A DNA stretch of 1,428 nt from NCBI RefSeq assembly GCF_003334785.1, contig NZ_QOWV01000060.1; one strand, 5' to 3'. The translations under genes were made by a program, and so were the position numbers. This document shows, one piece after another, positions 1-1,428 of the stretch; position 1 is the stretch's first letter; every line of letters starts with the position of its first letter. The DNA comes from Escherichia coli (GTDB taxonomy: Bacteria; Pseudomonadota; Gammaproteobacteria; Enterobacterales; Enterobacteriaceae). Under the pieces are notes generated by a model. It saw only the letters and a list, made by a program, of their open reading frames with translations, was not told the DNA's origin and did not search any database.

Positions 1-119
1 GTGGAGGTGAAGGCCACGCCGGGTTCATGAAGATGGCGGTCCAGGGTTTTCAGGGCCCGTTGAATGAGGCTGCGCTCGCCGGGCGTCATCTCTCCGGGCA
101 GAAAGGAAAGCTGTTGCAT
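1..119 (-). CDS. RadC-like JAB/MPN-domain protein (YeeS/YfjY/YkfG family), 5' partial: only the N-terminal 39 codons are in the window, the C-terminus lies beyond position 1
   Basis: Manual minus-strand translation from the ATG at 119..117 gives MQQLSFLPGEMTPGERSLIQRALKTLDRHLHEPGVAFTS, open to the window edge. I recognise this as the N-terminus of the RadC-like proteins of E. coli CP4-type cryptic prophages. A purine-rich SD-like stretch GGAGAGAAG (124..132) lies 4-9 nt upstream. An in-frame ATG at 134..132, directly after the upstream stop (TGAATG), is an alternative start. Absent from the ORF track because the in-window part is short. Confidence 0.75.
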   Translation of the reverse strand, partial: MQQLSFLPGEMTPGERSLIQRALKTLDRHLHEPGVAFTS

Positions 120-134: not shown

Positions 135-608
135 TCAGTCGATGATGCGCATAATGGCGCTGCATTCCGGATGCTGCAGGGCGTAATCCCGCAGCCGGTA
201 ATAATGGACCGTCATGGCATAACACTCCGTACGACAGGCATGATGACTGTACGTCATCAGACAGGCAGCAATGCCGGCAGCTTCCGGACTCATTTCAGCG
301 CGGTTACCGTTCATGGCATTGAACAGTACCCATGTTTCGTCATCATCGTCATCCGGTTCGGGTGCCATAAATGCCCCGCCGTTGTTCAGGGTGTACAGAT
401 TCCAGATACCACCGCAGTAGTCTTCGCACAGACGGTCCATCCAGCCGAAGACACGGGGCTCCAGGGTCACCCACTGTGGAATGAGGCCAAAGTGCTGCGG
501 CCAGAAGCTGATGCGCTGTTCATCAGGGACGAGGGTGGCAACCAGTTGTTGCAGGTCAGTCTCCGGTGCACAGGCCGAGGAGGTGGTGTTCTGAGACAAT
601 GTTTTCAT
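135..608 (-). CDS. Antirestriction protein, ArdB/KlcA family (Pfam Antirestrict-type; YfjX/YafX-like), 157 aa, complete
   Basis: Minus-strand ORF ending at TGA (137..135). Protein from the internal ATG at 608..606: MKTLSQNTTSSACAPETDLQQLVATLVPDEQRISFWPQHFGLIPQWVTLEPRVFGWMDRLCEDYCGGIWNLYTLNNGGAFMAPEPDDDDDETWVLFNAMNGNRAEMSPEAAGIAACLMTYSHHACRTECYAMTVHYYRLRDYALQHPECSAIMRIID. The VPDxxRxxFWPxHFG...PQW, CxxYxGGxW, LxNGG, SxEAAGI, YxLRD and HPE motifs match my recollection of KlcA/ArdB-family proteins. This start is preferred over the track's ATG at 785 because it has a strong AAGGA ribosome-binding site 8 nt upstream and gives the typical family length of ~150-160 aa. Confidence 0.85.
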   Translation of the reverse strand: MKTLSQNTTSSACAPETDLQQLVATLVPDEQRISFWPQHFGLIPQWVTLEPRVFGWMDRLCEDYCGGIWNLYTLNNGGAFMAPEPDDDDDETWVLFNAMNGNRAEMSPEAAGIAACLMTYSHHACRTECYAMTVHYYRLRDYALQHPECSAIMRIID

Positions 609-616
609 GTATGAAA

Positions 617-621
617 TCCTT
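617..621 (-). promoter_or_regulatory. Shine-Dalgarno site (AAGGA) for the antirestriction gene
   Basis: Minus-strand sequence reads TTACAAGGATTTCATACATG; AAGGA lies 8 nt upstream of the ATG at 608. Confidence 0.65.
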
Positions 622-909: not shown

Positions 910-1428
910 TCAGCGCAGGCTCTCCAGCAGCGTTTCCGCCATCACCCACAATGCGCGGTTGAGCTTAATATCGGTGTCGATGCTGTGAATGGCACGGGTG
1001 TGGATACGTTTTCCTCTGGCACTGCGACCGGAAATCCCGCCTTTCAGCATATTCTCCTGGATGGTCTGATAAGTACTCCACAGGTCCTTACCGTAATCCT
1101 CCCTGCGTCGCGGTGTCAGAATGTCAGCGGTGGTGACGGGCTGATGTTCGTCACCATAACGGTAAGTCAGTGCCGCCTGTGCCAGCGCCTGGCGTGCCGG
1201 TGGCGGCAGAATCAGCGACTGCATGGCATCACGCTTTTCCTCAATCCGGTCAAAAACCCCCACCACCTCGTAAGCCCCTTCAATGACTCTGTCCACCACA
1301 TTTCCCCGGTGCGGAACACGCACTTCCCCCAGAGACTGACCACAGACGCATCCGTTCTGGCAGACGAACCTGAAGTAACCCGGCAGCATCTGGTAGCTGG
1401 AGGTACCGTCATGAGAGTTGAGCAGAAT
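910..1428 (-). CDS. DUF932-family protein (YfjQ/YafZ-like), 3' portion: C-terminal 172 codons plus stop are in the window, N-terminus lies beyond position 1428
   Basis: The track ORF 910..1389 (-) remains open in the same frame up to the window edge. Manual translation of 1428..1390 gives ILLNSHDGTSSYQ, running into MLPGYFRFVCQNGCVCG..., so the track's Met at 1389 is internal. The stop is TGA at 912..910. The NSHDG(T/S)S and FxCxNG motifs fit my recollection of DUF932 proteins, which commonly sit upstream of antirestriction genes in enterobacterial islands. The family label is less certain than the call that it is coding. Confidence 0.7.
   Translation of the reverse strand: MLLNSHDGTSSYQMLPGYFRFVCQNGCVCGQSLGEVRVPHRGNVVDRVIEGAYEVVGVFDRIEEKRDAMQSLILPPPARQALAQAALTYRYGDEHQPVTTADILTPRRREDYGKDLWSTYQTIQENMLKGGISGRSARGKRIHTRAIHSIDTDIKLNRALWVMAETLLESLR

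Follow-up and report, generated by a model that had tools for sequence, protein, structure and literature searches.

A run of five aspartates within an antirestriction protein of Escherichia coli raised the question of whether such a strongly acidic patch takes part in antirestriction or has some other place in the protein. The window (the whole stretch of DNA that was analysed, 1,428 nucleotides of contig NZ_QOWV01000060.1) had previously been described in an earlier note that was made from its letters. That note mentioned an electrostatic contact between the patch and restriction enzymes as one possible role and considered the encoding DNA to be prone to slippage.

The run was located in an ArdB/KlcA-type antirestriction gene at positions 135..608 on the minus strand, which we identified from its translation, a Pfam profile, a deposited structure and a RefSeq coding sequence. 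The gene (ardB) encoded a product of 157 aa, with the ATG at 606-608 and the stop codon at 135-137. Residues 62-157 matched Pfam PF03230 (Antirestrict) with E = 3e-37 over model positions 1-92 of 92, i.e. over the full length of the family profile. Moreover, 154 of the 157 residues were identical to PDB 2WJ9 (ArdB from E. coli CFT073), PDB 2KMG (KlcA from pBP136) could be aligned with E = 2.6e-21, and the same span was labelled 'antirestriction protein' by RefSeq in NZ_CP035841.1, a 99.8%-identical E. coli chromosome. The start at 608 was supported by the 2WJ9 construct, by the RefSeq coding sequence in that chromosome, and by a Shine-Dalgarno-like AAGGA read from the sequence at 617..621 (minus strand), 8 nt before the start codon. 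A 216-aa ORF at 135-785 from the mechanical ORF list simply began at an upstream in-frame ATG, and a 195-aa plus-strand ORF at 27-614 that overlapped ardB was taken as a mirror ORF given the strong homology of the minus-strand frame. The protein ended with RIID, and its C-terminal aspartate D157 (138..140, minus strand) was equivalent to D141 of ArdB(R64) and D142 of KlcA136; it was at least 90% conserved in our alignment A1, and the window protein possessed the C-terminal Asp of the ArdB/KlcA family. The profile, the fold, this Asp and the context all place the window gene in the family, as the earlier note had recognised from the letters. Its product is essentially the crystallised CFT073 ArdB, and the patch was present in the 2WJ9 entry too.

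The genomic context was that of an island. Downstream of ardB, the 5' end of a RadC-like JAB-domain gene (1..119, minus strand; ATG at 117-119) began 15 nt after the ardB stop codon, and the upstream part of the window contained the 3' part of a DUF932 gene (910..1428, minus strand; stop codon at 910-912). The order of the whole island module was DUF932 - ArdB - RadC/JAB - DUF987 - CbeA/CbtA. Matches to the window occurred in 4,891 of 5,426 complete E. coli genomes (median, three places per matching genome), and the module is a very common genomic-island unit of this species. In the closest complete genome the island adjoined cadCBA, and the K-12 paralogues were yafX in CP4-6 and yfjX (renamed lfgA) in CP4-57. 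When both strands were scanned against Rfam at E <= 1, no RNA family was returned for the window, and a consensus scan returned no promoter or terminator; the tract therefore does not belong to an RNA element or signal.

On the plus strand, positions 339-353 read gtcatcatcgtcatc, and the reverse complement gave the codons GAT GAC GAT GAT GAC for D86-D90 (339..353, minus strand). The neighbouring codons were those of Glu91 (336-338) on one side and of Pro85 (354-356), Glu84 (357-359) and Pro83 (360-362) on the other. The five Asp codons were therefore followed by Glu91 in the frame of the minus-strand ORF 135-608, just as had been claimed. The peptide PEPDDDDDE was also given correctly in the earlier note, but its span was 336-362 rather than 336-359, the latter being 3 nt off at one end and encoding EPDDDDDE. 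The run exceeded chance expectation: in 200,000 composition shuffles of the protein, a run of at least 5 Asp appeared with a frequency of 1.25e-4 and a run of at least 6 D/E with a frequency of 3.9e-4. At the DNA level, the tract was an imperfect (GAY)5 repeat, for which Tandem Repeats Finder (TRF) reported no repeat even at a minimum score of 30. It contained two copies of GATGAC, the first encoding D86-D87 (348..353, minus strand) and the second, 9 nt downstream, encoding D89-D90 (339..344, minus strand). In 2,931 complete E. coli genome records the top match was an identical 95-nt region around the tract, so that a sequencing artefact can be dismissed.

The place of the run in the fold was read from an AlphaFold2 model built from a 39-sequence alignment (mean pLDDT 89.6, pTM 0.82). 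According to DSSP, residues 84-92 of the model were non-regular and lay between strand A79-P83 (AFMAP; 360..374, minus strand) and strand W93-N97 (WVLFN; 318..332, minus strand). In this model the Asp run is the loop of a beta hairpin, and the predicted acidic hairpin loop E84-T92 (EPDDDDDET; 333..359, minus strand) had a net charge of -7 out of a protein net charge of -12. No other 9-residue window of the protein was as negative as PEPDDDDDE. Thus, the 'strongly negative loop' of the earlier note was confirmed by the model as a segment between two beta strands. In the strands, F80, M81 and P83 on one side and W93 and F96 on the other were invariant across 86 enterobacterial homologues, and the block 81-90 had a mean pLDDT of 87, the lowest within the folded part. 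A Foldseek search with the model retrieved 2WJ9 with E = 7e-25 and TM-scores of 0.83 (query-normalised) and 0.90 (target-normalised), the overall range being 0.81-0.92, and 2KMG with E = 2e-10 and TM-scores of 0.77 and 0.84. No other PDB fold was found below E = 0.4, only ArdB and KlcA being retrieved, and the model had the alpha/beta fold of KlcA/ArdB. Although the TM-scores were high, so was the rmsd of the Foldseek match to 2WJ9 (4.8-6.4 A), and 2WJ9 chain A appeared to be about 11 internal residues short. [quoted passage not shown] In our alignment, the counterpart of the loop in KlcA136 was D69-R73 (DLAGR), and D69, E75 and E77 flanked the loop. From the secondary structure, the pLDDT of the block and the KlcA alignment we infer that the loop is probably solvent-exposed, flexible and close to an acidic face.

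The distribution of the loop among homologues suggested which of its properties were kept. In a set of 21 diverse full-length homologues (37-60% identity) plus KlcA, the loop was mostly 5 residues long with a net charge of +1 to -4, compared with 9 residues and -7 in the query. An enterobacterial set of 319 proteins contained 59 distinct loop sequences, 44 of which had nine residues, nine had seven, and a few had 8, 12 or 13; in one allele (P0049) the loop was deleted down to two residues. Judged from these alignments, the turn of distant ArdB/KlcA proteins comprises about 5 weakly charged residues, and the 7-13 residues of the enterobacterial island copies are a clade-specific enlargement. 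Each of the 59 enterobacterial loops carried a net negative charge, ranging from -1 to -10, and the fraction of D+E residues averaged 0.62. Among the 44 distinct nine-residue loops, E84 was found in 42, P85 in 33, D86 and D88 in 36 each, D90 in 32 and E91 in 35; position 87 was D or E in 34, and position 89 was free (D in 17, S in 11, N in 8, R in 3, and others). The clade thus conserves an acidic loop of the form E-P-D-[D/E]-D-x-D-E, of which the five-Asp homopolymer is the E. coli version.

The same data bear on the possibility that the run is a selectively neutral low-complexity insertion, made and kept by slippage in a tolerant surface loop. The loop columns were about twice as variable as the remaining protein (mean entropy 1.03 vs 0.51), the length variants ranged from 2 to 13 residues including the loop-deleted P0049, and the enlarged loop was absent from distant active homologues, all of which would be expected of such an insertion. 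However, neutrality does not readily account for 59 of 59 distinct loops being net negative, for D/E at positions 84, 86, 88, 90 and 91 in 32 to 42 of the 44 loops while their neighbours varied freely, or for the dominance of the nine-residue length (44/59). The conservation also spanned Escherichia, Citrobacter, Klebsiella, Hafnia, Enterobacter, Salmonella and Pantoea, with acidity kept across genera while individual loop positions turned over. The kept acidity argues for some selected role of the loop, and we consider a neutral insertion rather unlikely.

The explanation that we favour, and regard as probable, is that the run belongs to an exposed, flexible, clade-specific acidic hairpin loop that enlarges the negative face of ArdB, has at most a tuning effect, lies outside the essential determinant and undergoes occasional in-frame slips. 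The tract supplies five of the nine residues of the hairpin loop E84-T92 between its two beta strands. Such a loop would prolong the acidic face of the protein by a flexible, negatively charged segment, adjoining the strand that may correspond to the one bearing part of the 'glutamate cluster' of KlcA, and it might tune charge, solubility or the preference for a partner or target. The antirestriction determinant proper would consist of the C-terminal Asp together with the conserved surface patches, with the loop not included.

The last point could be compared with published activities. Against EcoKI, the reported anti-restriction values were 710 for ArdB-CFT073 (loop EPDDDDDET), 9,250 for YafX, 6,160 for YfjX and 2,430 for KlcA136 (PMC2836571 Table 2), the comparison being one between proteins that are about 30% (YafX, YfjX) to 60% (KlcA136) divergent and whose expression levels were unmatched. 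Activity of all four extended to the remaining Type I families in the assays (PMC2836571 Table 2). In our alignment the corresponding loops were EPDNDET in YafX, DADGDDK in YfjX and DLAGR in KlcA136. Since homologues without the run alleviated restriction as well or better, the Asp run was not required for activity; these data show that the run is dispensable, not that it is free of effect, because the proteins differ elsewhere and their expression was unmatched. The earlier note had named absence or high variability of the patch in functional homologues as a finding that would speak against its importance, and DLAGR, EPDNDET and DADGDDK largely correspond to such a situation. In the searchable ArdB/KlcA literature we found no report of loop mutants, and a requirement for activity was reported there for no residue other than the C-terminal Asp. 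Namely, deletion of D141 inactivated ArdB(R64) in vivo and in vitro (PMC12429846), and the C-terminal Asp lies in a conserved surface patch (PMC2836571). The paper on LfgA/LfgB was silent on the loop; LfgA failed to complement the lfgA phenotype there, and its authors suspected a polar effect on lfgB.

These activities also weaken the idea that the run makes an electrostatic contact, in which it would partly mimic DNA phosphates and bind the Type I enzyme in the manner of Ocr and ArdA. Such a contact would fit the position of the patch as the most negative window of the protein, the conservation of acidity within the enterobacterial clade, and the acidic character that ArdB proteins share with Ocr and ArdA (PMC2836571). 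On the other hand, the patch was absent from active homologues, and with 2,430-9,250 for KlcA136, YafX and YfjX against 710 for ArdB-CFT073 a required contact with restriction enzymes through the run was unlikely. Furthermore, ArdB and KlcA neither inhibit nor bind EcoKI in vitro and barely touch modification (PMC2836571). Their fold is globular and KlcA-like rather than that of an elongated DNA mimic, and our fold search, which returned only ArdB and KlcA, did not place the protein among the DNA-mimic antirestriction proteins of the Ocr/ArdA type. The known inactivating mutation concerned the C-terminal Asp. It has also been proposed that ArdB binds DNA non-specifically and blocks HsdR translocation (PMC10149784), and an Asp loop would disfavour binding of this kind. 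An EVADES preprint left ArdB and KlcA out of its co-folding. Taking both sides, we judge a contact of this type to be quite improbable.

A third explanation treats D86-x-D88-x-D90-E91 as a Ca2+/Mg2+ binding loop of the DxDxDG type. DxDxDG loops bind calcium via side chains at positions 1, 3 and 5. In agreement with this, positions 1, 3 and 5 of the loop (D86, D88 and D90) were conserved in 32 to 36 of the 44 distinct loops, with positions 2 and 4 being more variable. However, the sixth position was Glu in 35 of the 44 loops and not the motif-defining Gly, the seven-residue loops of the active paralogues broke the pattern (DADGDDK in YfjX and EPDNDET in YafX), and the ArdB/KlcA literature searched did not mention a metal. 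There was very little to be said for cation binding on this balance.

Returning to the loop that we favour, an acidic hairpin loop with occasional in-frame slips, its length alleles could be examined directly at the DNA level. An E. coli allele with eight aspartates (D8; P0039) read GAT GAC GAT GAT GAC GAT GAT GAC, which corresponded to the window tract with a perfect 9-nt tandem duplication (GAT GAC [GAT GAT GAC]x2), and it was confirmed in the complete genome of strain RM10740. Because the two GATGAC copies are 9 nt apart, their misalignment would account for this +9-nt allele. Alleles with four aspartates (D4) read GAT GAT GAT GAC, shorter by 3 nt through the loss of a GAC codon; they were found only in draft assemblies and metagenomes, and the tract DNA was identical in 5 of 5 proteins. 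The D4 proteins had 6-10 differences from one another, were equally far from the D5 alleles and were not each other's closest relatives. Independent origins of the D4 alleles were considered but not upheld, since the identical tract DNA would fit a single event spread by recombination as well as recurrent identical loss. Outside E. coli, a Citrobacter/Klebsiella allele read (GAT GAC GAC)x2 GAT, giving D7 (DGD7E), with relatives that had DGD3E.

The population census covered 5,426 complete E. coli genomes, which contain roughly 12,000-13,500 copies. In 2,931 records the top match was the exact 95-nt region with D5. Eleven records fell into the 95-99% identity band of the D8 query, with one more record at 99% or above, and this 95-99% band held all seven listed ungapped matches of D8 length. 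No D4 allele was seen among the 5,426 genomes; the best matches of the D4 query were all D5 alleles with a 3-nt gap. Thus, the in-frame length change foreseen in the earlier note did occur (+9 nt in D8 and -3 nt in D4), but the tract was not 'prone' to it, as the variants made up well under 1% of the copies. The tract shows ordinary micro-indel behaviour at a short repeat, being stable with rare variants. Slippage would be the mechanism of these length alleles, with the imperfect (GAY)5 tract and its GATGAC copies now and then misaligning in replication to yield D8 and D4; the tract does not serve as a switch.

Three further in-frame deletion alleles (P0055, P0057 and P0060) began in or at the tract. 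The tract was rejected as a deletion hot spot, since the two deletion alleles examined came from single draft assemblies and had no clean microhomology at their junctions. An 8-nt repeat, TGATGACG, was situated 2 nt out of register with the P0060 junction.

It was also considered that PEPDDDDDE could be an intrinsic ribosome destabilisation (IRD) sequence that aborts some ribosomes and in this way lowers ArdB, and perhaps the radC-like gene, in a Mg2+-sensitive manner. All 9 of its 9 residues are D, E or P, compared with the published criterion of at least 4 in 6 (bioRxiv 10.1101/2021.02.02.429294). The EPDP of MgtL and the internal DPDPEPE of the prophage gene yagN cause IRD (bioRxiv 10.1101/2021.02.02.429294; PMC11162784), the latter in vitro. 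Of the three E. coli proteins, ArdB-CFT073 showed the lowest activity against EcoKI, which is compatible with lower expression and is no evidence for it. However, D/E/P motifs in internal positions are mostly silent, as IRD is counteracted once at least 30 residues of the nascent chain occupy the tunnel (bioRxiv 10.1101/2021.02.02.429294). The motif is not near the N-terminus: it starts at residue 83, with 82 residues preceding it and the bulky F80 and M81 just upstream. Furthermore, ArdB-CFT073 could be over-expressed and crystallised. If IRD did take place, more ribosomes should drop off when Mg2+ is low or when cells are deficient in bL31 or YbiT, and the D4, D5 and D8 alleles would be expression variants and not surface variants. 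The chance of this was as slight as that of cation binding. Finally, the tract can hardly be a simple-sequence contingency locus for phase or antigenic variation, as in-frame length alleles do exist but there were only five imperfect units with no TRF repeat, a triplet unit cannot switch the frame, and the dominance of D5 in the population counts (2,931 complete-genome records vs about 11 of D8 length and no D4) effectively refuted it.

Considered as a whole, the feature is already known, since the window carries a near-identical allele of an ArdB with a deposited crystal structure and measured activity, and the acidity of the family and the variability of its loops were noted as early as 2009 (PMC2836571). 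The additions made here were small, namely the place of the run in the fold, the acidic E-P-D-[D/E]-D-x-D-E loop, rather than a homopolymer, as what is conserved in the clade, the census of the tract with its stable D5 and rare D8 and D4 alleles, and the argument for dispensability from published assays. Nothing here marked the loop as key to the mechanism of ArdB, and its significance is small. Since this mechanism is still described as unsettled (PMC10149784, PMC12429846), the clade-specific acidic loop would nevertheless be a cheap mutagenesis target with respect to target range.

Among the known systems, Ocr and ArdA resemble the window protein as small acidic proteins that block Type I restriction, but they are folded differently and act in another way. 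In vitro they attach to the methyltransferase core, and they prevent modification, neither of which applies to ArdB and KlcA (PMC2836571). KlcA of the IncP-1 plasmid pBP136 (2KMG) and ArdB of pKM101 and R64 share with the window protein the Pfam family, the fold, the C-terminal Asp and the overall acidity. However, their identity to it was about 40%, their loop was a 5-residue turn (DLAGR, net 0), and they are encoded by genes of the plasmid leading region and not by island genes. YafX and YfjX/LfgA were closer, being 67-69% identical (alignment A1), of the same fold family, provided with an acidic loop and active in vivo; their genes likewise precede a RadC/JAB gene and a CbtA-type toxin-antitoxin pair. 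They differed in that their loop was two residues shorter and lacked the Asp run (EPDNDET, net -4, and DADGDDK, net -3) and in that their reported activity against EcoKI was higher.

The closest of these systems was ArdB-CFT073 (PAI II ORF14; PDB 2WJ9; 'ArdB-CFT', Serfiotis-Mitsa et al. 2009/2010, PMC2836571), which had the same length and an identical PEPDDDDDE loop throughout. It differed from the window protein by D18G, L26I and D63N (window residue first), all outside the loop, and its chromosomal location may differ from that of the window copy. In vivo, ArdB-CFT073 alleviated restriction by all four Type I families and had little effect on modification (PMC2836571 Table 2). By analogy with this 98%-identical protein, the window allele would also be expected to alleviate restriction without blocking modification.

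Several alleles of ardB (135-608, minus strand, in the window) had lost internal segments in frame. The E. coli allele P0080 (124 aa) lacked exactly 99 bp between the two copies of a 9-bp direct repeat, TCATGGCAT (coding strand ATGCCATGA), and was 33 residues shorter as a result. A protein-level comparison showed that two further alleles, P0071 and P0085, had a junction identical to that of P0080. Within the ardB gene of the window, the copies of this repeat were located at 212-220 and 311-319 with a spacing of 99 bp.

In three other in-frame deletion alleles (P0055, P0060, and P0057), the 5' breakpoint was inside or at the tract of five Asp codons (339-353). The deletion comprised 72 nt in P0055 and 84 nt in P0060. 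Two of these three alleles were inspected at their loci (L015 and L016), each coming from a single draft assembly. An 8-nt repeat, TGATGACG, was present at 338-345 and 252-259, close to the P0060 junction. Its register was shifted by 2 nt relative to that junction, and a simple repeat-mediated origin of this deletion was therefore ruled out.

The N-terminus of ArdB was another variable part of the protein. The E. coli paralogue groups (157, 159, 161, and 164 aa) differed in length and sequence mainly in the N-terminal ~17 residues, as exemplified by a 12-nt indel near codon 10. Residues 1 to ~17 (window 558-608) were predicted to be disordered, with pLDDT below 50.

On the plus strand, a 195-aa ORF (27-614) was antisense to the entire ardB gene, and a 49-aa ORF (271-420) read the Asp tract as a run of Ser. 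Both probably represent mirror ORFs, ardB being a GC-rich gene.

Downstream of ardB, only 15 nt (120-134) separated its stop codon (135-137) from the ATG (117-119) of the RadC-like JAB-domain gene, which suggested co-transcription and possibly translational coupling of the two genes. In K-12, the paralogous pair yfjX-yfjY corresponds to lfgA-lfgB of the lfgABCDE operon, whose promoter is bound by MqsA, and MqsA is reportedly degraded by the protease LfgB (PMC10846083). On the other side of ardB, the 300-bp spacer that separated it from the DUF932 gene (609-909) gave no match in a sigma-70 consensus scan or in Rfam and contained no terminator-like site. A small hypothetical protein annotated in the matched region of some E. 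coli relatives probably maps to this spacer.

In the closest complete genome, E. coli TW10722 (NZ_CP035841.1, locus L014), the module was located within an island adjoining cadCBA. This island also contained a degenerate fragment of an integrase and an autotransporter of the Cah/Ag43 type, together with genes of the dynamin family and patatin-like genes. Its architecture was of the usual CP4-44/CP4-57-like type.
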